64,000 nt of DNA from a bacterium. GTDB lineage: Bacteria; 4484-113; JAGGVC01. The position numbers and the translations under genes were made by a program. The stretch lies in assembly GCA_039961635.1 (NCBI GenBank), contig JABRWB010000008.1:30158-94157 (forward strand), in the 5' to 3' direction. Below, in pieces: positions 3,434 through 48,198 of the stretch. Under the pieces are notes generated by a model, which saw only the letters and a list, made by a program, of their open reading frames with translations, was not told where the DNA came from and searched no databases. Each line of letters starts with the position of its first letter. The first letter of the stretch is position 1.

Positions 3434-6400
3434 CTAAGTATCCAGCACCAGCCTGACTTTCCCCAGAAGCGTCGTTACGCTGTACGGCTTGGGCAGGAAC
3501 GCGACGTTCTGCTCCAGCACGCCGGAATGCGCGATTACATTTTGGGAATAACCTGACGTATACAACACCTTGATCGACGGACGAGCCTTAGAAATTTCGC
3601 CATACAGCTGTCGTCCGTCCATCTTGGGCAGGATCGTGTCGGTAAGCAGCAAATCAATCGGCCCGCGATGCGACTTCGCGATTTCGATCGCCGCGTCGGG
3701 ATGGCCGGCCTCGAGCACGGTGTATCCGTTCTTCTTGAGTATTTCCACCGCAAGGCTGCGGACGATATCCGAATCCTCCACCACCAAAACAGTCTCCGCT
3801 CCTTTCACCGATTTGATATCGCCCAGGCATGGCGCGAAAGCTTCCATAGATTCGTACACCCGCGGGAAGTACACCTTGAACGTCGTGCCCCGCCCCGGCT
3901 CGCTGTACACCCAGATGTGCCCCCCGTGCTGCTTGACGATGCCGTACACCGTCGCAAGCCCCAGGCCGGTACCCTTTCCCAATTCCTTCGTAGTATAGAA
4001 CGGCTCGAATATGCGGTCGATCTGCTCCTTGTCCATCCCTTTCCCCGTGTCGTGGAACGACAGCATCACGTACTCGCCTGGTGTCACTTCGGCATGGGAT
4101 TTCGCGTACTCGTCGTCCAGATGCTTCACCGCAGTTTCGACGATTATCGTTCCGTTGCCCTCGATTGCATCGCGCGAATTCGCCGCGAGATTTATAAGTA
4201 TCTGGTGAATTTGGTTCACGTCCGCTTTTATCCGCGCTCCATCGGCGCCCGGAAAGACGCGAAGCTCGATGTTTTCGCCGATCAGCCTCGACAGCATTCT
4301 TGTGCATTCGTTGACTATCACGTCGATGTCCAGCACCTTCACTTCGAGAACCTGCTTGCGTGAAAACGCCAGGAGCTGCGCAACCAGCGCGGCCGCGCGC
4401 TCGCCCGCGCGTTTGATCTCCTCCAGGTCCTGATAAAGCTGGTTATCCGGTGCAAGCTCCGAAAGAGCGAGGTCGGCGTATCCCATTATCGGAGTGAGCA
4501 GGTTGTTGAAATCGTGGGCGATGCCGCCCGCAAGCAGCCCTACGGATTCCAGTTTTTGCGACTGCCGAAGCTGCTCGGAAAGCTTCGCCTTTTCATCCTC
4601 CGCCCGCTTGCGCTCCGAAACGTCGGCAAGGATTACGGCGTAGTGCCCCGGCTCCGGACGGTAAATCGTGAAGTCGAACCACTTGCCCAGCGCTTCCGAA
4701 TATTCCTCGAACCGGTCGGATTCGCCGGTTTGCGCAACCTTTCCGCATCGCTCGATCCAGCCGGGGAGCGACTTTGGAAATACTTCGGTGAACCGCCTGC
4801 CGACGACATCCTCGCGGCGCAACCCGGTGAGTGTTTCGAACGCGCGGTTGACGTCCACGAATTCGGAATCCACCGGCCGGCCGTTTTCATCGGCGATGAT
4901 TTTATGAAGCGCGAAGCCGTCCGTCATCGATTCGAACAGCTTTGCAAAACGCTCCTCTGCAATCGCCTTTTCCGCGTGGGCGCGAAGCGAGTGTATGCCG
5001 TACGTCAAATCCTTGCCCAGTTCGCTCAAGAGCGCGACCTCCTCGTCGTCGAAGGCGTCCGGCTCGGCCGCGTAGATATTGAGCGCGCCGATTACACAGC
5101 CCCCCCATTCGAGCGGAATCGCGATGGAGGATTTGTACCCGCGCGAGAGCGCGAGTTCTCTCCACGGCGAATAGTCCGGACTCTCTTCGATTCGCGCGAT
5201 CTGAGTCCGCCCGGTGCGGATTGCTGTGCCCGTCGGGCCGCGGCCGTACTCGTCGTCCGCCCACGAAATCCGCGCCTTAGAAAGATAGCCCTCCTCGACG
5301 CCGCTCCAAGCTACCGGCTGGACGGTTTTATTCGCGTCGTCGCGCTTCAGCCCCACCCAAGCGAGCCTGTAACCCCCTTCCTCCACTATTATCCTGCAAA
5401 ATTCCCGCTTGAGCGACAACGAGTCGGTTTCGTGGACCAGCTGCTGGTTGCAAAGCGAGAGGACGCGGTACGCGCGCAAAAGCCTTTCCTTCGCCTGCTC
5501 GGCCCGCTTTTTGTCGGTGATGTCGACGAAATTAAAAGCTATATGCCCGGGCATAGGAGTGAAAACCAGCAGGTGGTACCAGCGGTCGAGCGGCGGCCAG
5601 TAGTTCTCGACGTACTTCGGCTCGCCGGTTATCGCAACATCGGCGAAAACGTCGAACCAGTTCGCGGGCGCGTCGGGATATATTTCCGTAACCCGCCTTC
5701 CCACGGCCTTTTCGCGCGGCAATCCCAATATCCGCTCGAACGCGGGATTCACATCAATAATCTGCGTGTCGTAGGGCTTGCCGTTCTCGTCGTAAAGTAC
5801 TTCGTGAAGCTGAAATCCGCTTACGCTCGTTTCGAAAAGCATCCGATAGCGGAAGTCCGCTTCCTCGCGCTCTTTGCGTATGCGAAGCATGTTTATTCCG
5901 TAGGCGAGATCGCCGGCAAGTTCCTTCAGAAGCGCGATCTCTGAATCGTCGAACGCGTCCGGCTCGCCGGCACCGATTGACAACGAACCGATCAAGTTGC
6001 CGTTCGATTTGAGCGGAAGAGCAGTCAAGGCGCGCAGCCCAAACTCCTCGATGATATCGCGCCAAGGCGCGATTCGCGTGTCGTTCGGCAAATCGTGCGA
6101 AATAAACGGCTTCCCGGTTTTAATCGCAGTCGCCGATGGACCTTCGCCCTTGGGACCTTCCCCCCAGGTGAGATCCAGAGATTCGACGAATTTGGCGGGC
6201 AGTCCCGCGTGTGCGACGATGCGAATCGTTTTGTTTTCGTCGTACTCGCGCAGGCCGACCATTGCCAGCTTGTATCCTCCAAATTCGACTATTACGTCGC
6301 AGAACGCCTGTTTGAGCGCCACGGGATCGCTCTCCCGCACGAGCCGCTGGTTGCATTCCGACAACACGCGGTACGCGCGCATAAGCCTCTTTTCAGCAGC

Positions 6401-7613: not shown

Positions 7614-10600
7614 CTACCCGTTTTCGAGAATGAATTTCACGTACGGCTCGGACTCTTTCAGCCGCATCGCGCCCAGCTTTTTCACAAGCGGCTCCAGCGC
7701 GTCACGGACTTCCGAATTCAGGCCGTACTCGGACTTCCAGCGCATCGCCAGCCGCGCCGCGTCCGCGCGCACGCCCCAGTCCGTATCGTCAAGGAGCAGC
7801 GAGACCGTGTAAATCATCGCTTCGTCGGGCTGCGCATCGATACGCGCGAACGCGGCCAAGAGCGAGCGCACGGCGCGCAAGGAAAGCGGCGGCAGGTCTT
7901 CGGGCGCGCGCGCGGAGCGGGCGATGTCAACAAGATCCTTTTTCATCTGCGCGCCGAAGAAATCGTAATTGGCGACGAGGAGGTTGACCGCCGCCTCCCG
8001 GACGGTCAGCTTCGGATAATCGAGGAGCGCGCGGAGCTGCGGCCAGCAGTCGGTTTTGAGCTGCACCAGCGCGGTTATCGCGGCGCGGATCATCGCCTCG
8101 TCCCGGTCGAGCGCGGCCATCGCGAAAAGCCGCTCGTCGCCGGCGTGGCTGCCCAGCGTGCCGAGGACGCCGGCCGCGCGCCGGACGAAGGCCGGGTCGG
8201 GATCGTCGAGATATTTCACAACCTCGTCCGCCAACTCGGTCAGCTTGAGGTCGTTTATTACGACAAGCGAGATGAGCTTGCGCTTTTCATTGGTTGATTG
8301 CGCGTTGCGGCGGATGACTTCGAGCACGCCCGCCCTGTCCGTCTCCAAAATCCTGCCCAGCACGTCGTCGAACGCGCGGATGGCAAGCCCCGACGCGTCG
8401 TTGTCCATCACCTTCTCGATATACGGCAGCACCGAGCTTCCGAACTCGATCAGCCGCTTGCGCGCCTCGGGAACGATGTAGCGGTTATCGCCCACCTCCC
8501 ACCGGATTGATATTTCCCATAGCTCGTCGAAAACTTCCTGCGTGATTTCGCCCTTGTAATTGCACACTTCGGGGATCGGCGCCTGGCCGGAGACCACGTT
8601 AGGGCCGCTCTGCGGCTCCGCATCCTTAGCGGGGGGGGGAGCAATATCAATGCCTGTGCCGAAGCTCGTGTTCGACCACGCGCCGTCGTCTTTCATCTTG
8701 CCGAGGTAATCGTCGGCGCCGCCGAGATCCACGAACACCCCGATGCTGGCCGTGCCGCGGTCCGGGCGCCCGCCGTTCATGTATCCGTCGCGCCTTCCGG
8801 CGTATATATCGTTTCCGCTCCTGTCGAAAAACAGCCCGACGCTGTTCGTGAGCCCGGTTCCGTTGCATGAGGTCAGGCCCATATAGTGGTCATCCCCGCC
8901 GCGATCCATCAGCACGCTCGCCGCAAAGTCGTGGCTTCCGCCCTGTCCCAGCCCGCTGTGCATTACGTAGGTGTCATGCCCCCCCCCGTCGATCAATCCG
9001 CCTATCGCCAGGTGGATGCCGCTGCCCTGACCGTACTGCGTCATTTCGTACACATCGTTGCCCGCGCCGTCCCACAGGAATCCCGCGCTGTACCAGTAGC
9101 CGACTCCTTGGTTGTATATGTCGCCGAGATACCGGTCGTTTCCCGCGTAATCAATGAGCATCGCGATACCGCCCGCGTAGTCTATGTCGCGCTCGCCGAT
9201 CGCGAATCCCTGGCTGAAGGATTGATAGCGATCCGCGAAGAGCGGCGCGTGCAGGTACACACCCCCGGCATGGTAAACCTCGTTTCCGCGCGTGTTCACA
9301 CAGAGCGCGACGGCCTTCGTGCGCGCGAACGCCTGCGCGTTCGTCCAGGCGAAGTAATAATCGTTGTCGAAGTCCGCGATCGCGACCGGATCCGGCGTCT
9401 CGACGTCCGTCGGGATGTCCGGCGCGGGCTCGACCGAATCGTCCACCATGATTCCGATTCCGAATCCCGCCGCGCCCTGGGTGTACACCTTGCTTTCGTA
9501 CGTATCGCTTCCGCCGTCGTCGTAGAACGTCGCGACCCCCCCCACCGCGGCGCCGAGCGTGCAGCTTCCCGCCACGTAGCGGTCGTTCCCTCCTCCGAGA
9601 TCGTAGAACGCGGCTATTCCAAGCACCGCCGCGCCGAGCGTGATGTTCGTTTCTCCGCAGTCGTAGAAGTCGTTTCCGCCGAGATCGGCGAAGAAGCCGA
9701 TCTGCCCCATTCCGATGCCGGTTTCGGGCGCGCCGTACGCAGCTCCGATGATGCAGTTTACGTAATGGTCGTTTCCGCCGGGATCTATCAGCGCCGCGAA
9801 ATTGCCGGTGTACGTGTCGTCTCCGGCGGTTCCGATTGCGATCCGTCCCGCTTTCGTTTCGTAAATCGCGGGCGCGGCTTTCGGAAACGCGTCCGCGGGA
9901 ATCAGCTCAAGCCAGTCCTGCGGGTATCCGAAAACGTACTCGTGGTTTATCGCGAACATTACGATGTCGATTTTCGACGCGAGCTTGTAAAGGTAATCCG
10001 CGGGCCTGTCCTCGAGCGCCGCGTCCCAGTCCTTGCCCTTCGCCGCGTCGAACGGCGACTTGAACACGTCGTGCCATGCCATCTGGTAGGGCAGCTTGTA
10101 CCGAAGCAGGTCGAACTCCGCGCCTTCCACGCCGTAAGTCATCGGGTAAGCGGCGAACGCCTCCAGAAGCGCCGCGAGGTCGTCAGTCGTTTCAATTTTG
10201 CGGACGCCGTTTATAAACTCCATCGGCAGGTTCCTGCCAGTCGGGCTGGGGGGAACCATCGGCTGCGAGCGCATATCTTCAAGCGCCTTCACGGCCTGAG
10301 CCATTTCCGAATACGGATGCGGACGCTTGCCGGGCTTGCTCCAGTCGGCGAATCCGTCCATCACGGGAGCTATGAGAAGCGGGTCGTCCATCAACCGCAG
10401 GACGACGGGCAGGCACTCGTACCCCTTCGTGTAGTCCTTCTTGAACCGCAGGTCTTCGCGGTTCATGTTGACTGCCGCGAGCGCCCGGTCGAGCGCGGCA
10501 AGCTCCTCCGGCGTGTAGCTTGGCGGAAAATACCCCAAGGCGGACGCGGCGTCGGGCGACTGAGCGGACGGCGTTGCTTGGCCGGAATCCTGCGCGGCGG

Positions 10601-10823
10601 CGGGAAGCGGGAAAAGCGCGGCGGCGGGAAGCGGGAAAAGCGCGGCGGCAACCAGAAAGACAACCGAAGCGAATGCAAAACGGCGGCGGATCATCGGAGC
10701 ACCTCCGGAAATGGCAAATGGTGTTTCACCGTGGAGGATTATACGCCGGGCGGCGACTGGCTTGGAGATACGATTGCAGCTTGGGATTTTGCCACGGATC
10801 TGGTCGCTACTCCTCCCCCGCAA
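7614..10823 (-). CDS. Large secreted repeat protein: signal peptide, central array of about 22-aa GGNDxY/GGDDHY/GGADDY repeats (beta-helix-like), C-terminal HEAT/armadillo-like repeats
   Basis: 1069-aa ORF. Probable real start at MIRRRFAFASVVFLVAAALFPLP (signal peptide). At least 12 Gly/Asp-rich repeats containing G-(G)-N/D/S-D-x-Y. C-terminal 300 aa are alpha-helical with HEAT-like repeats (LLDDTDWGVRADAARLA, LDDPDPAFVRRAAGVLG). The stop overlaps the start of the upstream gene by 17 nt. Confidence 0.7.
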   Translation of the reverse strand: MRGRSSDQIRGKIPSCNRISKPVAARRIILHGETPFAISGGAPMIRRRFAFASVVFLVAAALFPLPAAALFPLPAAAQDSGQATPSAQSPDAASALGYFPPSYTPEELAALDRALAAVNMNREDLRFKKDYTKGYECLPVVLRLMDDPLLIAPVMDGFADWSKPGKRPHPYSEMAQAVKALEDMRSQPMVPPSPTGRNLPMEFINGVRKIETTDDLAALLEAFAAYPMTYGVEGAEFDLLRYKLPYQMAWHDVFKSPFDAAKGKDWDAALEDRPADYLYKLASKIDIVMFAINHEYVFGYPQDWLELIPADAFPKAAPAIYETKAGRIAIGTAGDDTYTGNFAALIDPGGNDHYVNCIIGAAYGAPETGIGMGQIGFFADLGGNDFYDCGETNITLGAAVLGIAAFYDLGGGNDRYVAGSCTLGAAVGGVATFYDDGGSDTYESKVYTQGAAGFGIGIMVDDSVEPAPDIPTDVETPDPVAIADFDNDYYFAWTNAQAFARTKAVALCVNTRGNEVYHAGGVYLHAPLFADRYQSFSQGFAIGERDIDYAGGIAMLIDYAGNDRYLGDIYNQGVGYWYSAGFLWDGAGNDVYEMTQYGQGSGIHLAIGGLIDGGGHDTYVMHSGLGQGGSHDFAASVLMDRGGDDHYMGLTSCNGTGLTNSVGLFFDRSGNDIYAGRRDGYMNGGRPDRGTASIGVFVDLGGADDYLGKMKDDGAWSNTSFGTGIDIAPPPAKDAEPQSGPNVVSGQAPIPEVCNYKGEITQEVFDELWEISIRWEVGDNRYIVPEARKRLIEFGSSVLPYIEKVMDNDASGLAIRAFDDVLGRILETDRAGVLEVIRRNAQSTNEKRKLISLVVINDLKLTELADEVVKYLDDPDPAFVRRAAGVLGTLGSHAGDERLFAMAALDRDEAMIRAAITALVQLKTDCWPQLRALLDYPKLTVREAAVNLLVANYDFFGAQMKKDLVDIARSARAPEDLPPLSLRAVRSLLAAFARIDAQPDEAMIYTVSLLLDDTDWGVRADAARLAMRWKSEYGLNSEVRDALEPLVKKLGAMRLKESEPYVKFILENG
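10597..10644. repeat. Perfect 24-bp tandem duplication (2 copies) inside the signal-peptide region of CDS 7614-10823
   Basis: gcggcgggaagcgggaaaagcgcg occurs twice in tandem. It encodes AALFPLPA AALFPLPA on the minus strand. Confidence 0.8.
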
Positions 10824-12234: not shown

Positions 12235-12448
12235 ATTCGTGCCTCCGACAAGCGTGGTGCAATGCCGTACTTGTCCGATAAGATTTTAGCATGCGCAATT
12301 ACGCGAAGCTTCAGGAGTGCCGGCGCAATGCCGCCGCTTAATTCAAGGTCAAAATCGAGCGCAGGCAAGGCCTGCGCACTCCTGAATGGGCTTTTGGAAT
12401 ATCTTTCCTACTTCCGGTTTTCACACATTCCCCGCCATCCCGTGGTAC

Positions 12449-36366: not shown

Positions 36367-37272
36367 GGGGCGCAATTTCATATCCCTCCGGTTTCCGGAA
36401 TGGCGCGCAGCGGAATTTTCGCAGGCGCGGCTGGCAGCCGCCCGTTTTCCCGCCGCGGAAATGCGCGGATTTTTCTGGGAGTACGCCGCGTGAGCGGCGT
36501 CCCGCATCGCCTGCGTGAGCGGGCGTGAAAGGACTATCTTTATTTTAGCCGCTTAAGCGGCACAAACCCGACGGCACTTACGTGCCGTACTCCCGGACGC
36601 TACGCGGATATTAGGTATTGATACCGGATACGGCTTGGCCTTCAGGAGTGCGAGAGCCGCGCTCTCGCTCGTTAACGGGAAGCCATGCTTCCCGGAAAAT
36701 AGGAATTCAAATTGCATTGCGCAAACATGAAATTAAAGGAAAAACAATTTCCCCGAAGCATGGCTTCGGGATATCGAGCGGCAGCATGGCCGCCGCAATC
36801 CGGACGCGACGCGGCATTATGAACCGCCGCGACGCGGGGCGCGGCATCCAGCGCGACATGCAGCCCATTCCGGCTCCGCTGTACCTACGCGGAACCTGCG
36901 CGTTATGGCGCGACGCGTGGGAAACGGAAGGCCGGGCGGCGGGCGAGCCGCCGCTCGCCCCTACGGGAAATTTGAGGCGGCTATGGTTTAATGCGGAACG
37001 TCGGAAAAGGCCCGGAAAATTCCCGCATCCCCTGAGTAAAACTGCGTTTGACAGTCCAAAGGGGGGGCGGCCTGCCCTTCCATTTTGGAACGTTGCCTGA
37101 ATGGTGGGATTAACATATTCTTCCTTCTACGAATAATGGCGGAATGTCAACATGGGAAGGCCATGGAAAGATCTGTTTTTGCATGCGAAGATTGTCTGAT
37201 ATTAATCCGTCCAGATCGCTTTTAGCAGTTCGGCTTTGGGGCGATGGTATGAAGAAATTGCCCAAAATATCA

Positions 37273-40170
37273 TCAGAGTTCGTCAGGATCAAGCCTTTGA
37301 ACCAGAAAATCCCGTGAACCTCCACCGACATCAAGTACACCCTCCCTCCAAGTTTGAATCCCATCGGAATCAACAAATATTCCGGATATATTCCCGGAAG
37401 TAACATTTAAATTAATAACTTCTCCCGACGGATGGCTGATGTATGGATTTCGTGCTTCAAATTTCAAACTAGCGCTATTGCAGTTACCCGCCAGCACCAG
37501 TTCGTCATGGCCAGCCTTTGCAATTACCATTCCATCCATATAGTCTTTAATATCACTCAATCCAAATGCCCATATTATGTTTTCATCTATGTCCATTTTG
37601 GCTAAAGATGCGCGCCAAAACGAAATGTATACCCCGTCAGAAGTCGGAACAATACCGCGAGTCCAATATGGTAGTTCCTGGAAGCACGCTGCTTTTTTTA
37701 GCTCACCTGAATCGCTAAATTTCAAAAGTATTGGCTTTTGAACCCCGTTGCTGTAGTACTCTGTTCCGCCGCCTAGGTAGATATCGCCTGTGTCGGATAT
37801 GGCCAGGTCGTTTCCATATTCCTTTGACGGAGTCTCCCATCTACGCGCCCAAATAAAGTTGCCATCCATATCAATTTTCATTATCTCCAAATCGCCTTGG
37901 CCTGCTTCGGCATCCCAATTGTATCCTCCTGCATACAAATATCCGTTTTGCTGGTCAATTTCGCTCGGATAAGCAACCGCGCCAGGATAGGCGCGCGCCC
38001 AGATTAGCTGGCCCGATGAATCAAGATTTAATATTATACAAATTTTATCGGCCGCATCGCTTATAAAACCCAACACGTAAACAAATCCATCTTCATTAAC
38101 GACAACACTTCTGGCGACCGATTCAACACCAGCCAAAAATAACTTGGACCACAGAATGTAGCCATATTCGTTATAGCGTTGAATTAACAAGTCATTATGA
38201 GGCTCTGGCTCAAAGCTGGTTGCTGTCCATCCAGCAACGTATACGCCGCCCTCATTGTCGGCGGCAATGCCTCCTGCACAATCGTTAAAAGTAGTATGGT
38301 AGGTAGTAGCCCAATAAAAGTTGCCATATTGATCAAAAGTAGCAAGCAATATGTCTCTAAAAGGATCATCCTCAACACTTATATCGCCAACTATGCATTC
38401 CGAGTCATTTGATGTGGATGTGACCTCTAGCGCGTACTCAGACAAAACGGAGCCCCAAGAATGGTACCAGTCCACATGCGATACCGCAAATGAAAAGGGA
38501 AAGCTGGCCATGCCAAAGGGACTAGTGAGTTCGAGCATTCCAACGTAATCTCCCGGCTCTCCAAGCATGACAACTGGTGTTGCTTCGGAAGATTGCGACG
38601 GCACAGCATAATCTCCAAATGTCCAATTGTATGCTAGTGGTTCTGACCCAACGACATCTGCAGAAAACTGAACTTGGGTTGCACGATATCCGCTTAAAGG
38701 CGAAACCGATAGTATTTGTGGAGGCGCGCCCGGGCCATAAACTGTAAAAGTAAAATGAAATTCATCCTCCCCCGAAGAATTCGTCGCCTTAAAAATACCA
38801 TCGTATTCGCCAGCGGTCGCAAATACAATTTGTGGCCAAAAATCGGATGAATGGTTCGGTACAGCTCCGCCTCCAAAATCCCAAGAATAGTACATTGGTT
38901 CTGTGCCATTTACCGATGCTGAAAATGTGGCCCGGTCGCCTTCAATGCCGAACAGTGGGGAAACAGACTTAATGTTGGGCACATATGGATTGGCAACAAC
39001 ATCAAGATTGAAATGCCTGGAATCGCTACCTGCTGGATTTGACACGGTAAGTAGGCAATCATATTCACCTTCTGAGCCAATTTGCTCGGTTGGTTGCTGC
39101 AGATTACTGGCAGATGGAGTGGCTGCATCTCCAAAACTCCAGCTGTAAATAAATGGCTGAGTTCCGGAAATTGCTGCCCGAAATACAACTGAATTTCCGG
39201 CAAGTGCACTCTGGGGTGCAATACTCATAATATTTGGCCTTATTAAGTTTGCCGGAATTTGGATTATATTGCTACTATCTCCCTCCGAATTATCACTGGC
39301 CACCGGAACGACGCATACAAAACCTTGTTGTCCCATCGGTAGGTTTAGAGTGATTTTATGTTGAGCTAGTACTTGCTGGCTTACGGGAGTTGGCGCGCCG
39401 ATTTGGATATATTCGCCTTGCTCAAGCGAAGAAGTCAAGACTACATAGCCCCATACTTCGTTTAGGAACCTTAATGCGATTGGTGTTATGTCGCTTATTC
39501 CAACCACGCCGTCACCATCGCCGTCTATCCATGCCTCCAGCGCGTCGTCGCCGATGCCGTCGTTTGTGAGCGCGCCGAAGTGGAGCGCGATCGGCGTGAT
39601 GTCGCTTACGCCCACCTCGCCGGAGACGTCGAAGTCGCCAAGGTTCACGTAGCTCCAGCTAAGCGTGTTCGTCCCCGGATCGTACGCGAGATCGGTCACC
39701 CGGCCGGCGTCGCCCTGGGGGGCTCTTGATACGATGCGGTTCCCGCTTGCGGAATTGCGCGAGCCGCCGCCCGCGATTCCCGATTCGCGCGTGCCGCCCG
39801 CGATTCCCGATTCGCGCGCGCCGCCCGCGATTCCCGATTCGCGCGCGCCGCCGCCCGGCGCTGCAGCTCCATTGCCATGTATTTCTTCGAGCCGGCGGAT
39901 GAGTTCGCTACGAAGCGTTTCGAATACCGCGGGATCGGCGCCGTCCGGAGTTTCGTAGCCGCGGATTTCGTCGAGCGCGGATTCGAGCGCGACGGATTTC
40001 GGTTCGGCGATTGCGATTCCCGTTTCGGGCGAGTCCCGCCAATCGCGGGAACGATGTCCGCCCGCGTCGCCTGCGGAGTTTCTATGCTTGCCCGCGGAGC
40101 AGGATGGGACAAGGAGCGATGCGGCCAAAAGCGCCGCGGCGATTGCGAATGCGGCAAGCGACTTTGTCAT
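37273..40170 (-). CDS. Secreted cell-surface protein: signal peptide, 3x ARESGIAGG repeat, dockerin-like Ca-binding repeat pair, 3 PKD domains, C-terminal SBBP-type beta-propeller
   Basis: 965 aa. Signal peptide MTKSLAAFAIAAALLAASLLVPSCSAG. Dockerin-like segments GDFDVSGEVGVSDITPIALHFGA and IDGDGDGVVGISDITPIALRF. Three PKD-like blocks (..YSWSFGDAATPSAS.., ..YYSWDFGGGAVP.., ..YNWTFGDYAVPS..). At least 6 SBBP-like repeats (DNEGGVYVAGWT, NEDGFVYVLGFI, QQNGYLYAGGYN, DTGDIYLGGGT ...). The DNA from about 37100 to 39450 is markedly AT-rich relative to the window. Confidence 0.75.
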   Translation of the reverse strand: MTKSLAAFAIAAALLAASLLVPSCSAGKHRNSAGDAGGHRSRDWRDSPETGIAIAEPKSVALESALDEIRGYETPDGADPAVFETLRSELIRRLEEIHGNGAAAPGGGARESGIAGGARESGIAGGTRESGIAGGGSRNSASGNRIVSRAPQGDAGRVTDLAYDPGTNTLSWSYVNLGDFDVSGEVGVSDITPIALHFGALTNDGIGDDALEAWIDGDGDGVVGISDITPIALRFLNEVWGYVVLTSSLEQGEYIQIGAPTPVSQQVLAQHKITLNLPMGQQGFVCVVPVASDNSEGDSSNIIQIPANLIRPNIMSIAPQSALAGNSVVFRAAISGTQPFIYSWSFGDAATPSASNLQQPTEQIGSEGEYDCLLTVSNPAGSDSRHFNLDVVANPYVPNIKSVSPLFGIEGDRATFSASVNGTEPMYYSWDFGGGAVPNHSSDFWPQIVFATAGEYDGIFKATNSSGEDEFHFTFTVYGPGAPPQILSVSPLSGYRATQVQFSADVVGSEPLAYNWTFGDYAVPSQSSEATPVVMLGEPGDYVGMLELTSPFGMASFPFSFAVSHVDWYHSWGSVLSEYALEVTSTSNDSECIVGDISVEDDPFRDILLATFDQYGNFYWATTYHTTFNDCAGGIAADNEGGVYVAGWTATSFEPEPHNDLLIQRYNEYGYILWSKLFLAGVESVARSVVVNEDGFVYVLGFISDAADKICIILNLDSSGQLIWARAYPGAVAYPSEIDQQNGYLYAGGYNWDAEAGQGDLEIMKIDMDGNFIWARRWETPSKEYGNDLAISDTGDIYLGGGTEYYSNGVQKPILLKFSDSGELKKAACFQELPYWTRGIVPTSDGVYISFWRASLAKMDIDENIIWAFGLSDIKDYMDGMVIAKAGHDELVLAGNCNSASLKFEARNPYISHPSGEVINLNVTSGNISGIFVDSDGIQTWREGVLDVGGGSRDFLVQRLDPDEL
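39765..39845. repeat. Three tandem 27-bp repeats inside CDS 37273-40170 (encode ARESGIAGG x3)
   Basis: gccgcccgcgattcccgattcgcgcg(t/c) repeated three times, head to tail. Confidence 0.8.
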
Positions 40171-40437
40171 CCCTGCACCTCCGGCGGGCGTTTATTCCGC
40201 CAAAACCAGCAAATTATAGACGGAAAGATTATTGCGGAAAATTGGGGAAATGTCAAATGTGCAGAGCGAAGTGTGAAGAGTGAAGAGGGATGAGCCATAA
40301 GGCAAAAGGGAAAAAGAAAGACGGAATCGAGCGTTGAGAAATCAAGGTTGACGGCCGGGCGCCTTTCCGGAGAACTGCGCATTACGACCCTGGCAGGCGG
40401 ATTATTTTGAATATTCAAAATATTCAAAAAACCGACT

Positions 40438-44889: not shown

Positions 44890-45114
44890 TCACTTCGCCG
44901 CAGCCTGGTAAATCGCAGGGCGGTATCTGGGCTTCGGAATCCGTTTCCCCGACGCCTGCGCCGCTTCAATCCATGCGGATTTCGCGATAAGCACCTCGCG
45001 CAGAGCCTTCTCCGGCGTCGAGCCGAAGGCCGAGCAGAATTTGAGGTCCGGAATGTCCGCGACATAACATCCGTCCTCGTCACTGTAAAACACGTTGACG
45101 TGGTAATCTTTCAT
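44890..45114 (-). CDS. hicB: HicB-family antitoxin (type II TA)
   Basis: 74 aa. YSDEDGCYVADIPDLKFCSAFGSTPEKALREV fits the HicB/UPF0150 RNase-H-like fold. Overlaps the upstream hicA by 4 nt. Confidence 0.7.
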   Translation of the reverse strand: MKDYHVNVFYSDEDGCYVADIPDLKFCSAFGSTPEKALREVLIAKSAWIEAAQASGKRIPKPRYRPAIYQAAAK

Positions 45115-45368
45115 TTGCCGTCACCCACATCCAGCCCATAACGCTCAATAATCGAGACAAGCTGCCTGAGCTGGTACGTCTTTATTTTACCCCCGAAGTT
45201 CTGGATATTGATCAGTTCGTTAACACCCGCGCGCCGAAAAATATGGTGGCTTCCCTTTTTTCGGGCAAGGCGAAATCCTAGAGCATCGAGCAGGGTTAAG
45301 ACGTCTGCAAAGGAGACGTTGCCTGAACCGCGCAACACCTGTTCCAGCAATTTTCGTATCTTGGTCAT
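45111..45368 (-). CDS. hicA: HicA-family mRNA interferase toxin
   Basis: 85 aa. LGFRLARKKGSHHIFRR (the KGSHH motif of HicA dsRBD-like toxins). Confidence 0.75.
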   Translation of the reverse strand: MTKIRKLLEQVLRGSGNVSFADVLTLLDALGFRLARKKGSHHIFRRAGVNELINIQNFGGKIKTYQLRQLVSIIERYGLDVGDGK

Positions 45369-45751
45369 TAAGCGTCAAAATACGGGTAACCGAGTCATTC
45401 TATCTTAATTTAACTTAGATATTTCTAATAAGCGCCTCTACCCGCCGTAATTCACGATCGTGAACTGGATCGGGAAGGGCGCGCTGCCGTGCCAGAACGG
45501 AGCCGGCTCCTGATTTAGCCGCGCCGTGGACATAAAAGCAAATTGAGCCGGCGGCATGTCGCTCGCGAAAAAAACGCGGCGTCGGCTTTTCCAGTCCCCG
45601 TCCCGCTTGCCCCGATTGTCACAAAGATTTTTCCGCCGCAGGCTGTCCATTTCCGGCAATACTTGACAAATGTTGGCTATAATAAGCGATGGAGGCGTAA
45701 CCGAGCCAAGCCCGTTTTCCGGGCGGGGCGCCCGGCCTCCCGGAGGTTATT

Positions 45752-47119
45752 TTGAGCGATACTTTGAATTACCTTGATTCGGCGGAAGGGCGAAGTGAAT
45801 CGTACATGCGCAGGCGGCGGTGCGCGCTGTACGACGCGTACTTTTCGGGCAGGCCGTACGAGAACGAGCGGGAGTGGCGCAGCCTGCTCGGGTACTCGGC
45901 GGAAGTTTCCGCACCCGCGATTGTAGTCAACTATCCGCGGCTGGTCGTGGAGCGTCCGGCGCACTTCGCGTTCGACCGGGTCGCGGGCGTGGAGGCGGCT
46001 GACCCCGCGGCGCAGGAATTCGTCGAGCGGGCAATCGCCGGACTGGAGATCGGCGGTATAAGCTCGCTGGATGCGCTTTTAAGCGAAGCGGCGATAGAGG
46101 CGTCCATCAAGGGTGACGCGCTGCTTGTGTTCGATCCGTCGGGATTGGTGAGCGCGGGAAATGCAGGCGAGACGCCGGCCCTCCCTGTTTCAGTCATCCC
46201 CGCGGAGGATTACACGCTTGAATGCGATCCCCACGACGCGTCGAAAATTGCGTTCATCCGCATCGAGTACCGGATCTCCGATGGGAACGGGAAAGAAACC
46301 CGGCACAGGCGGGAGCTGCATCCCGACCGGATTCTTGAATTCATCGGCGACGCGCCGAAGGGCCGCAGGATTTGGTTCGGCGGAAACGCGGCGCACCTTG
46401 CGGGCGCCGCGCCGGACGAGCCGAAGGAATGGCGGCTCGTCTCCGCCGCGAAAAATCCGCTGGGCGAGATACCCGCGGTCGTCGTGCGCAACCGGCCGCG
46501 CGTCGGGCGGGCTTACGGCGAAAGCGACTTCGCGGATCTGCTGACGATATTCGACGACATCAACTGGAAATACTCGCAGAGGTCGCGCAACATCAGCCGG
46601 ACGATGAACGCGATTCTGAAATCAGTGAACGGCCGGATTCTGAACGACGTGATTTCCGAAAACGGCGTGCTGTCGGTGATCGGCGAGGGCGCGGAAGTCG
46701 GGTATCTCATCAACGACGCGGACATGAGGGAGATCTCGACGCATATCGCGGAGCTGCGCCGGGCGCTTTTCGAAATAAGCGGGGTGACGGTGCTGGACGC
46801 GGAGAAGCTTTCCGGATACGGCGCGCTGTCCGGATTCGCGCTGTCCGTTTTGTATGAGCCATTGATCGCGCTTGCGGAGAAAAAGCGCCGGACGATCGGC
46901 GGCGCGGTGGAGCGGTTCCTGTCGAAGATCGTCCGGGCGGGATGGAAGCTGGGATTGATCGAAACCGAGCCGGAAAGCTTCGGCGTGCGGATCAAGTACG
47001 GCGCGATGTTCCGCGAAAGCGAGCGCGAGCTTGCGGAAAAGCAGTCGAGATTGCTCGCCGCGATCGACGCGGGACTTTTGACGAAGGAGCAGGCGGGGAA
47101 GGCAATGGAAACAAGTTGA
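45752..47119 (+). CDS. Phage portal-like protein
   Basis: TTG start 8 nt after GGAGG. 455 aa. Size and position immediately upstream of the capsid gene fit a portal; the family was not verified. Confidence 0.5.
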   Translation: MSDTLNYLDSAEGRSESYMRRRRCALYDAYFSGRPYENEREWRSLLGYSAEVSAPAIVVNYPRLVVERPAHFAFDRVAGVEAADPAAQEFVERAIAGLEIGGISSLDALLSEAAIEASIKGDALLVFDPSGLVSAGNAGETPALPVSVIPAEDYTLECDPHDASKIAFIRIEYRISDGNGKETRHRRELHPDRILEFIGDAPKGRRIWFGGNAAHLAGAAPDEPKEWRLVSAAKNPLGEIPAVVVRNRPRVGRAYGESDFADLLTIFDDINWKYSQRSRNISRTMNAILKSVNGRILNDVISENGVLSVIGEGAEVGYLINDADMREISTHIAELRRALFEISGVTVLDAEKLSGYGALSGFALSVLYEPLIALAEKKRRTIGGAVERFLSKIVRAGWKLGLIETEPESFGVRIKYGAMFRESERELAEKQSRLLAAIDAGLLTKEQAGKAMETS

Positions 47120-47213
47120 CAGTTGGACAGTTGACAGTTCGACAGTTAACTGCGGTTGTTCGACAAAATACACCGGACATGCGAAGCAACTGTCAACTGT
47201 TAACTGTCAACTC
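47115..47213. repeat. Iteron-like inverted-repeat array between the portal and capsid genes
   Basis: Left arm GTTGACAGTTGGACAGTTGACAGTTCGACAGTTAACTG (4 x ACAGTTN). A 26-nt spacer follows. The right arm CAACTGTCAACTGTTAACTGTCAACTC is the inverted complement. Confidence 0.7.
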
Positions 47214-47286
47214 TGAACTTGATTACAGATGCAATCCGGATTATCAACCGGAAAAAGAAACTATGTAATTTTAAGGAGGATCGTGT

Positions 47287-48198
47287 ATGGCACTGACTTT
47301 GGCGGACGCCGCGAAGCTTGAAACGGACGCGCTTAAAAAGGGGGTGATCGAAACCTTCGGCGAGTTCTCGCCTGTCTTGGAAGACCTTCCCTTCATCGAG
47401 GTGCAGGGCAACAGCTACAAGTACGCGATCGAATCGTCGCTGCCCGCGGTGGAATTCCGCGAGGTGAATTCGGCGTACACCGAGAGCGCGGGCGAGTTCA
47501 CGCAGGCGAGCGAACCGCTCGTCATATTCGGCGGCGTCGTGGACGTGGACCGCTACCTGCAGCAAACGCGCGGCAGCATAAACGACCAGCGCGCGATCCA
47601 GACGCGGATGAAGGTGAAGAGCCTGGCGCTCGCGTTCACGCGCAACTTTTTCGAGGGCGACACCACGGCCGACCCGAATTCGTTCGAAGGGCTTTCGAAA
47701 AGGCTGACCGGCGCGCAGGTGATAACCGCGGACGACGGCGGGCACAACGGCGACGACCTTTCCATGGATTACATGGACATGCTGATAGACGCTGTGTGGG
47801 GCGGGCCGGACGTGATTTACATGAGCCGCCACAACAGGCGCAAACTGACGCAGATCGCGCGCGAAACGAACTTCCTCGAAGTGTACCTGGACGACTTCGG
47901 CAGGCAGGTGACGCGCTACGACGGAATTCCGGTGAAGATAATCGGGAAGGACGAGACGAACGAGGAAATCCTGGGCAACGACGAAACCGAGGGCGAAAAC
48001 GACGAAACGAGCAGCATCTACGCCGTCAAATACGGAGCGGACGAGTTCGTGTGCGGGATTACGAACGGCGGAATCCAGGTGGACGACCTGGGGCTTATCC
48101 CCTCCCCCCCCGTGTACCGCACGCTTATCGAGTTCTACTGCGGACTGGCGGTGTTCCATCCGCAGGCCGCGGCTAGGCTGAAGGGGATAAACAAGTAA
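47287..48198 (+). CDS. Phage major capsid-like protein
   Basis: TAAGGAGGATCGTGT-ATG. 303 aa starting MALTLADAAKLETDALKKGVIE, with an acidic patch DETNEEILGNDETEGENDETS. Position and expression signal fit a major capsid protein; the fold was not verified. Confidence 0.55.
   Translation: MALTLADAAKLETDALKKGVIETFGEFSPVLEDLPFIEVQGNSYKYAIESSLPAVEFREVNSAYTESAGEFTQASEPLVIFGGVVDVDRYLQQTRGSINDQRAIQTRMKVKSLALAFTRNFFEGDTTADPNSFEGLSKRLTGAQVITADDGGHNGDDLSMDYMDMLIDAVWGGPDVIYMSRHNRRKLTQIARETNFLEVYLDDFGRQVTRYDGIPVKIIGKDETNEEILGNDETEGENDETSSIYAVKYGADEFVCGITNGGIQVDDLGLIPSPPVYRTLIEFYCGLAVFHPQAAARLKGINK

Follow-up and report, generated by a model that had tools for sequence, protein, structure and literature searches.

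In Escherichia coli and Neisseria, extragenic palindromes are found just past stop codons in operons, where they fold in the mRNA and alter the stability or processing of the flanking cistrons: repetitive extragenic palindromic (REP) sequences and bacterial interspersed mosaic elements (BIMEs) in the former, and Correia elements, or Neisseria miniature insertion sequences (NEMIS), in the latter. Correia elements are cut by RNase III, and a REP near a stop codon (within ~15 nt) lowers the expression or translation of the upstream gene. In phages, the T7 R sites and lambda sib are long stem-loops of the polycistronic transcript, placed between genes that are needed in very different amounts. Contiguous units of 6-7 bp, direct and inverted, or arranged 4 + 3 around a central segment, make up the omega-repressor operators of pSM19035 and the pac site of P1. 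Heptamer repeats are over-represented among the longer simple repeats of bacterial intergenic DNA; they lie near an upstream open reading frame (ORF), vary between close relatives, and have no established function (PMC4679880; PMC4692102). In the gene transfer agent (GTA) of Caulobacter, an element containing repeats and inverted repeats after the first gene is a strong terminator that is bypassed by the antiterminator GafZ (PMC11150451). Here we describe a 111-nt palindrome, with arms made of repeated heptamers, that lies between the portal and major capsid genes of a phage-like cluster in a planctomycete metagenome-assembled genome (MAG). The stretch of DNA analysed, which we call the window, comprises 64,000 nt (64 kb) of contig JABRWB010000008.1 (assembly GCA_039961635.1, positions 30,158 to 94,157), and all coordinates refer to it. 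The palindrome is well supported, by sequence comparison, as a lineage-specific addition exactly at the portal stop codon, before an otherwise intact and conserved short gap, and if it has a function we tentatively favour that of an intercistronic RNA hairpin.

The element and the two genes that it separates are laid out as follows.

45752-47119, + strand: portal gene (SPP1-type), first gene of the cluster (PF05133, 8.9e-15; phrog_64, 8.6e-23)
47111-47221, + strand: whole imperfect palindrome (111 nt), predicted by folding to form a 42-bp RNA hairpin
47114-47152, + strand: left arm, with four direct GACAGTT heptads, ending in the local palindrome CAGTTAACTG
47117-47119, + strand: TGA stop codon of the portal gene, part of the first heptad (GTTGACAG) and within the stem base
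47153-47186, + strand: spacer of 34 nt, partly self-complementary (10 further pairs in the pair list), with the apical loop at 47163-47173
47187-47221, + strand: right arm, with AACTGTC (47188 and 47202), AACTGTT (47195) and AACTCT(G) (47209) at a spacing of 7
47222-47286, + strand: ancestral intergenic segment, delimited by alignment to the relatives' gaps, with a small hairpin CCGGATTATCAACCGG (47236-47251), an AT-rich tract and the ribosome binding site (RBS) AAGGAGG (47274-47280)
47287-48198, + strand: major capsid gene, GP7-family (PF20911; phrog_212, 3.9e-83)

The direct GACAGTT copies start at 47118, 47126, 47133 and 47141, so that their spacing of 8, 7 and 8 amounts to two 1-nt insertions. 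Each arm is thus a head-to-tail array of at least three 7-nt units of the TTGACAG type, four on the left and three or four on the right, where AACTTG closes the stem. The palindrome reaches further out than the heptad arms, and the last two portal codons and the TGA lie inside the stem. An earlier reading of this DNA, made from the letters alone (the sequence-only reading), had described a long imperfect heptamer palindrome in the portal-capsid gap, with four ACAGTTN heptamers on each arm and a 26-nt spacer. The palindrome is confirmed and its extent is larger than was described; the count of four holds for the left arm, while the right arm has three exact heptamers and one degenerate one, and the spacer measures 34 nt. 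The distance of about 60 nt that the same reading gave to the capsid RBS agrees with the 61 nt between the end of the right arm repeats (47213) and AAGGAGG; counted from the end of the stem, the RBS lies 53 nt downstream.

Folded as sense RNA, 47111-47221 has a minimum free energy of -48.9 kcal/mol, against -25.5 +/- 3.2 for shuffled sequences (z = -7.2; 0 of 200 shuffles as good), which bears out the very stable RNA stem-loop that had been suggested. The antisense RNA of the same 111 nt folds more weakly (-42.6 kcal/mol, z = -5.2), and the DNA fold reaches -27 kcal/mol (z = -5.6). The sense fold consists of 42 bp (23 AU, 17 GC and 2 GU), interrupted by two 1x1 mismatches and two 1-nt bulges and capped by an 11-nt loop; put differently, a main stem of 32 bp with four single-nucleotide defects is prolonged by 10 further pairs. 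With transcription taken from the operon layout, the predicted stem is long enough for an RNase III-type substrate, which needs a nearly unbroken RNA duplex of at least ~20 bp.

Of the seven exact GACAGTT heptads in the window, six fall within the ~100 nt of the element, 300 shuffled versions of the window gave no array of at least three heptads, and Tandem Repeats Finder calls each arm as a period-7/8 array. Across the 64 kb and 15.8 kb of flanking contig (~80 kb), there is one other exact heptad outside the element, no other array, and no second copy of the element; further heptad pairs are absent (the sequence-only reading had advised looking for the heptamer elsewhere in the genome) from the rest of the 64 kb, including the putative cluster promoter upstream of the portal gene. 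A search of viral contigs with the spacer sequence gave no match, and BLAST of the gap against 50,697 phage records returned a single 33-nt match, at chance level. Rfam yielded nothing for the entire window at gathering scores and, for the element region at E <= 10, sub-threshold matches to generic long-hairpin models only (miRNA precursors and a plastid 3' untranslated region); a literature search for the exact repeat strings found nothing relevant. The identical element is present in a Joint Genome Institute (JGI) contig and in four independent Logan assemblies (100% identity), and it is therefore not an assembly artefact. The same-strain assemblies (L161-L165), being 100% identical over 8-21 kb, carry no evolutionary information.

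Relatives of the cluster were gathered by a capsid search, two collection scans and look-ups of the closest proteins. Seven syntenic portal-capsid-tail clusters have 78-83% capsid identity (L001/L082, L081, L092, L466, L468 and L469), and in more distant clusters (64-72%) a scaffold-like gene separates portal and capsid. Altogether, at least seven other contigs from planctomycete MAGs have a syntenic copy (the loci also include L083-L089), with the portal gene first and with differing cellular neighbours. The portal-capsid gap is 167 nt long in the window and 49-83 nt in the seven relatives, none of which has a heptad array there (7/7 absent). The 65 nt that follow the palindrome (47222-47286) align with the relatives' entire gaps, across the small hairpin (CCGGATTATCAACCGG versus GGCCGAAATTATACGGCC) and the TAATTTTRAGGAGGA RBS region. 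Each of the seven relatives has a small stem-loop of its own at the same place, and in L082, L468 and L081 it is followed by a T-run. The clusters do not differ in the length of the portal C-terminus. It is this combination, of relatives' gaps that lack the array and of a downstream segment that matches those gaps in full, that supports a lineage-specific addition. The absence from all seven homologous gaps, an outcome that the sequence-only reading itself had counted against its proposals, also makes two roles unlikely that had been proposed for the element, those of a pac site and of an obligatory late-gene operator of this type of cluster.

What could such an addition do? The promoter scan found no + strand promoter in the portal-capsid gap; the TTGACA cores of the heptads, checked by eye, have no -10 at 16-19 nt; and the terminator scan found no hairpin-plus-T-run terminator there, the stem being followed by AUUACAGAUGC, which contains no U-tract. 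With neither a predicted promoter nor a U-tract terminator in the gap, co-transcription of portal and capsid is probable, and the element would then fold in their common mRNA as a 42-bp hairpin of -49 kcal/mol. Such a stem is a typical substrate for double-strand RNases of the RNase III type and a barrier to exonucleases, and it could uncouple the fates of the portal and capsid messages. The stem base also pairs the UGA and the two codons before it, so that ribosomes should be slowed or hindered in completing the portal. The net effect would be to lower portal relative to capsid, as virion stoichiometry requires, while the capsid RBS downstream would stay free. We judge this combined role, of nuclease site or barrier and of UGA pairing, to be the leading possibility for the heptamer palindrome, if it is functional at all, while placing its probability at somewhat below even. 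A hairpin that sets the capsid-to-portal ratio is likewise the most plausible of the three roles that the sequence-only reading had put forward.

Two other ideas about the coding potential of the element were discarded. Recoding of the UGA, for instance as selenocysteine, is rejected, as in-frame read-through reaches a TGA after 4 codons and a TAA after 9. A small ORF starting from an ATG in the loop (47170) and crossing the right arm is unsupported: it is open only since AACTGTC contains no stops, it has no usable RBS, and it appears only as part of an overlapping frame.

Similar designs exist in viral contigs. These were scanned for two tandem heptads (at least 120 loci), with two composition-matched heptads as controls:

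GACAGTT: 120 loci scanned; arrays of at least three units, 28; two or more arrays, 13; convergent pair, 4
GATGCTA (control): 120 loci scanned; arrays of at least three units, 5; two or more arrays, 0; convergent pair, 0
GTAGACT (control): 54 loci scanned; arrays of at least three units, 5; two or more arrays, 2; convergent pair, 0

A direct array, a core and an inverted array follow one another in four contigs (L213, L241, L253 and L194), with contig G+C contents of 42-66%. As RNA, these heptad-armed hairpins reach -45 to -70 kcal/mol (z between -5.9 and -10), and they sit in late structural-gene gaps, between co-directional or convergent genes, often with a stop codon at their start; the element of L253 follows a tail gene, and the arrays of L207 precede a tape-measure gene. 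In two related podovirus-like contigs, L241 (9800-9975) and L180 (5118-5290), the element begins at the TGA of the major head gene. Between these two the spacer has diverged, with indels, while both arms keep their heptads and have switched together, GACAGTT in one against GACAATT in the other. The cores of L253 and L213 contain canonical terminator hairpins, with a GC stem and T-runs, in both directions. L253 (IMGVR_UViG_2820259584_000002, a phage contig of 42% G+C) has two copies of ~120 nt, at 3688-3804 and 8825-8945, within unrelated flanks; in each, five heptads of the TTGACAG type and five inverted ones enclose a bidirectional terminator core, and there is a third arm, on its own, at 8061-8095. 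Only L213 and L253 matched the viral-contig scans for a strict two-arm pattern, so exact copies of the design are rare. Solitary arrays of the same heptad, which cannot pair, also occur in viral contigs. Elsewhere in this collection, two contigs of ~46% G+C (L228 at 600-760 and 1450-1600; L222 at 8820-8910) have mixed adjacent runs of AACTATC, AATTCCT, CAATCCT and AACTTTC, which resemble the mixed heptamer repeats of cyanobacteria.

The phage-like cluster itself extends from the portal gene (45752) to the end of a weak CHAP-domain protein (57077). It contains portal, capsid, head-tail adaptors, tail tube, chaperones, tail proteins of 642 and 466 aa, and the weak CHAP peptidase. Upstream of it are tpiA and a hicAB pair, and downstream is an esterase.

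44890-45368, - strand: hicB-like/hicA toxin-antitoxin pair at the cluster's left border, with tpiA on one side and the portal gene on the other

The cluster has no recognised gene for a terminase, a protease, an integrase or lysis, and the 64-kb window has no recognised terminase at all. Searches by tblastn with TerL from Firmicutes prophages that have the same capsid family gave no match in the window or in eleven related loci (+/-7 kb), so that the missing terminase of the sequence-only reading stands, both here and beside the homologous clusters. This terminase-less cluster looks GTA-like or domesticated. Among the cluster proteins, the neighbours and a 70-aa upstream ORF, many of which have no annotation, no DNA-binding protein was recognised save the short HicB-like antitoxin, and no candidate antiterminator was identified among the cluster proteins. 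The portal gene is preceded by perfect TTGACA and TATAAT hexamers only 9 nt apart (45663-45683); the promoter scan did not report them, and they are possibly the cluster promoter, with a non-canonical geometry.

Other repeats are scattered through the window. Short intergenic tandem arrays of TAGTGAA (x3, 229-249) and GTGAAGA (x4, 40259-40287) mean that heptamer simple repeats of other sequences occur in the same genome. A second, unrelated palindromic family has two intergenic members, a short form of 77 nt (12310-12386) and a long form of 163 nt (36642-36804), which have common termini (TTCAGGAGTGC...GCACTCCTGAA) and internal blocks (ATCGAGCG) and no Rfam match. A 27-nt tandem repeat (3.3 copies, 96% matches, 39765-39852) lies near the 5' end of a minus-strand gene for a 965-aa PKD-domain protein, and a 24-nt tandem repeat (2.4 copies, 100% matches) lies at 10592-10649.

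In favour of the intercistronic hairpin are a stability far beyond that of shuffled sequences, the better fold of the sense strand, the stop codon within the stem, the lack of a + strand promoter and of a T-run terminator in the gap, the small stem-loops at the same place in the relatives and, in homologous form, downstream of the palindrome, and, among the viral contigs, the late-gene positions and strong folds of the heptad-armed hairpins, the terminators in the L253 and L213 cores and the joint arm change of L241 and L180. Other observations weigh against it. Arms that are internally repeated are unnecessary for an RNA hairpin; the lack of an array in the homologous gaps means that the element is dispensable for the cluster; and the relatives' own small hairpins are not significant against shuffles. 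Gene conversion or a binding protein common to both arms would equally be expected to produce the coordinated arm change of L241 and L180, and the solitary, unpairable arrays mean that the repeat itself may be the relevant unit, or may simply be slippage-prone. The main stem has just one G-U pair that speaks for the sense strand, and G-U strand bias is uninformative on RNA function, with one informative pair here and wobbles in L253 that favour the strand opposite the genes. A second explanation is that the element is a functionless heptamer simple repeat or a small mobile palindrome, formed at the portal stop through slippage and template switching, or through insertion, and merely tolerated in the gap. 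This explanation is compatible with the same origin as the hairpin reading, and it draws on the absence of the element from seven close clusters with the ancestral gap intact downstream, on the window's other heptamer arrays and its palindromic family, and on the unrelated flanks of the two L253 copies, as well as on the over-representation of heptamers among long simple repeats of bacterial intergenic DNA, where they lie near an upstream ORF and vary in close relatives (PMC4679880, PMC4692102). We nonetheless hold it to be somewhat unlikely. The element is single-copy in the ~80 kb of its own contig and has no target-site duplication; a 42-bp stem over a stop codon, once transcribed, would hardly be without effect; the arms of L241 and L180 are maintained while the spacer diverges; and TTGACAG heptad arrays and inverted pairs are far commoner than those of the two control heptads.

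The remaining explanations give the element a function other than that of an intercistronic hairpin. It might be a transcription attenuator, a "lock" after the first gene of a GTA-like cluster, with a dedicated antiterminator permitting read-through into the capsid and tail genes. This would suit an element that immediately follows the opening gene of a phage-like cluster with no terminase; also in its favour are the hairpin plus T-run at the same site in L082, L468 and L081, the canonical terminators in the cores of L253 and L213, and the precedent of Caulobacter, where a GafZ-bypassed terminator follows the first GTA gene (PMC11150451). The lock is improbable all the same, since the stem is AU-rich (23 AU, 17 GC), no U-tract follows it, the terminator scan was empty, and no antiterminator candidate was identified. 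Alternatively, the heptads could be a binding array on the DNA, on which a regulator that multimerises, such as a ribbon-helix-helix protein comparable to the omega repressor on its 7-bp heptads, controls the transcription of capsid and other late genes. Contiguous units of 7-8 bp, both direct and inverted, are what such a protein would bind; some viral contigs have the same heptad at several sites per genome, unpaired arrays included; and both arms co-vary in L241 and L180. We consider the array quite improbable, however, because the gap has no promoter at which it could act, no other heptad pair occurs in the 64 kb or at the cluster promoter, no DNA-binding protein is recognised in or beside the cluster except the short antitoxin, the homologous clusters are all without it, and the spacer is palindromic too, which a pure two-array site does not need. 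Least probable by far is a pac-like packaging site for a terminase encoded elsewhere. The four and three or four short repeats around a central segment do resemble the layout of P1 pac, and a terminase is indeed missing locally; against this, homologous terminase-less clusters do without the element, no terminase gene adjoins it, and GTA-type particles package DNA without a specific site.

A broader view would place the element among undescribed small cassettes, TTGACAG-type heptad-armed hairpins in which inverted 7-nt arrays surround a variable and often terminator-bearing core. These would move, inside a genome and from one to another, among tailed phages and phage-derived clusters that differ widely in G+C content and host, inserting at the stops of late structural genes as cistron insulators. 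The recurrence of one and the same unit would be explained either by a heptad-specific protein or by the universal, -35-like core TTGACA. We regard this view as speculative and rather improbable. The recurrence of the design in a few unrelated viral contigs, one with two copies and two related ones with matching arm changes, does hint at a small, undescribed kind of late-operon insulator. Should the hairpin tune portal against capsid as we propose, a phage-derived cluster would have gained control over stoichiometry by acquiring a repeat-built palindrome and not by evolving a promoter or a terminator. Since the element does not belong to the conserved make-up of the terminase-less cluster, it does not explain how the cluster packages its DNA.

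Compared with the known systems, the element stands close to several and coincides with none of them. From the REP and BIME families and from miniature inverted-repeat transposable elements (MITEs), which are high-copy, dispersed and conserved, it differs in having no second copy in ~80 kb and in having arms that are internally repetitive heptads. It is 111 nt long, where REP sequences and the hairpins that they form (REPINs) measure ~20-40 nt. Its size and terminal inverted repeats (47111-47152 and 47187-47221) fall within those of MITEs (~100-150 bp), which are multi-copy and flanked by target-site duplications; here no duplication is seen, the flanks being GGAAA and ATTAC. Like the T7 R sites and lambda sib, it is a long stem-loop between phage genes of unequal product demand, but related phages share those sites, whose internal loops are characteristic, whereas this element is not conserved in homologous clusters and its cleavage is hypothetical. 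The omega operators lie at the promoters that they control and P1 pac, as a conserved part of a packaging module linked to terminase, in or near packaging genes, with a cognate protein nearby; the portal-capsid gap has neither a predicted + strand promoter nor any recognised neighbour of these kinds. The terGTA of Caulobacter crescentus is, like our element, non-coding, contains repeats and inverted repeats, and stands immediately behind the gene that opens a phage-derived cluster (PMC11150451). It consists of three GC-rich direct repeats of 150 bp and is a proven terminator with a known antiterminator in GafZ, in contrast to the 111 nt found here, which are AU-rich, have no U-tract and have no candidate antiterminator among the cluster proteins. 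The heptanucleotide simple sequence repeats (SSRs), such as the short tandemly repeated repetitive (STRR) sequences of cyanobacteria, TAACTGA of Beggiatoaceae, Cyanobacteria and Bacteroidetes, and GGGAATC of Xanthomonas, are likewise intergenic 7-nt tandem arrays near the end of an upstream ORF, found in one genome while close relatives lack them at the corresponding gap, with occasional inverted sets that form stem-loops (PMC4679880, PMC4692102). Our element is similarly intergenic, set at the end of the upstream ORF and absent from the seven homologous gaps, and the TAACTGA unit resembles its (C/T)AACTG(T/A) unit. Unlike these repeats, which number dozens to hundreds per genome, it is single-copy in ~80 kb, belongs to a phage-like cluster of a planctomycete, and has only 4 + 4 units, whose strict arm complementarity gives one 42-bp hairpin. 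The finding is thus genuine but modest, in that the element is akin to the known intergenic palindromic and heptamer-repeat elements and is not a conserved functional module of the cluster; the more unusual points are that the heptad-armed hairpin design recurs in a few phage contigs that are unrelated, and that the cluster has no recognised terminase.

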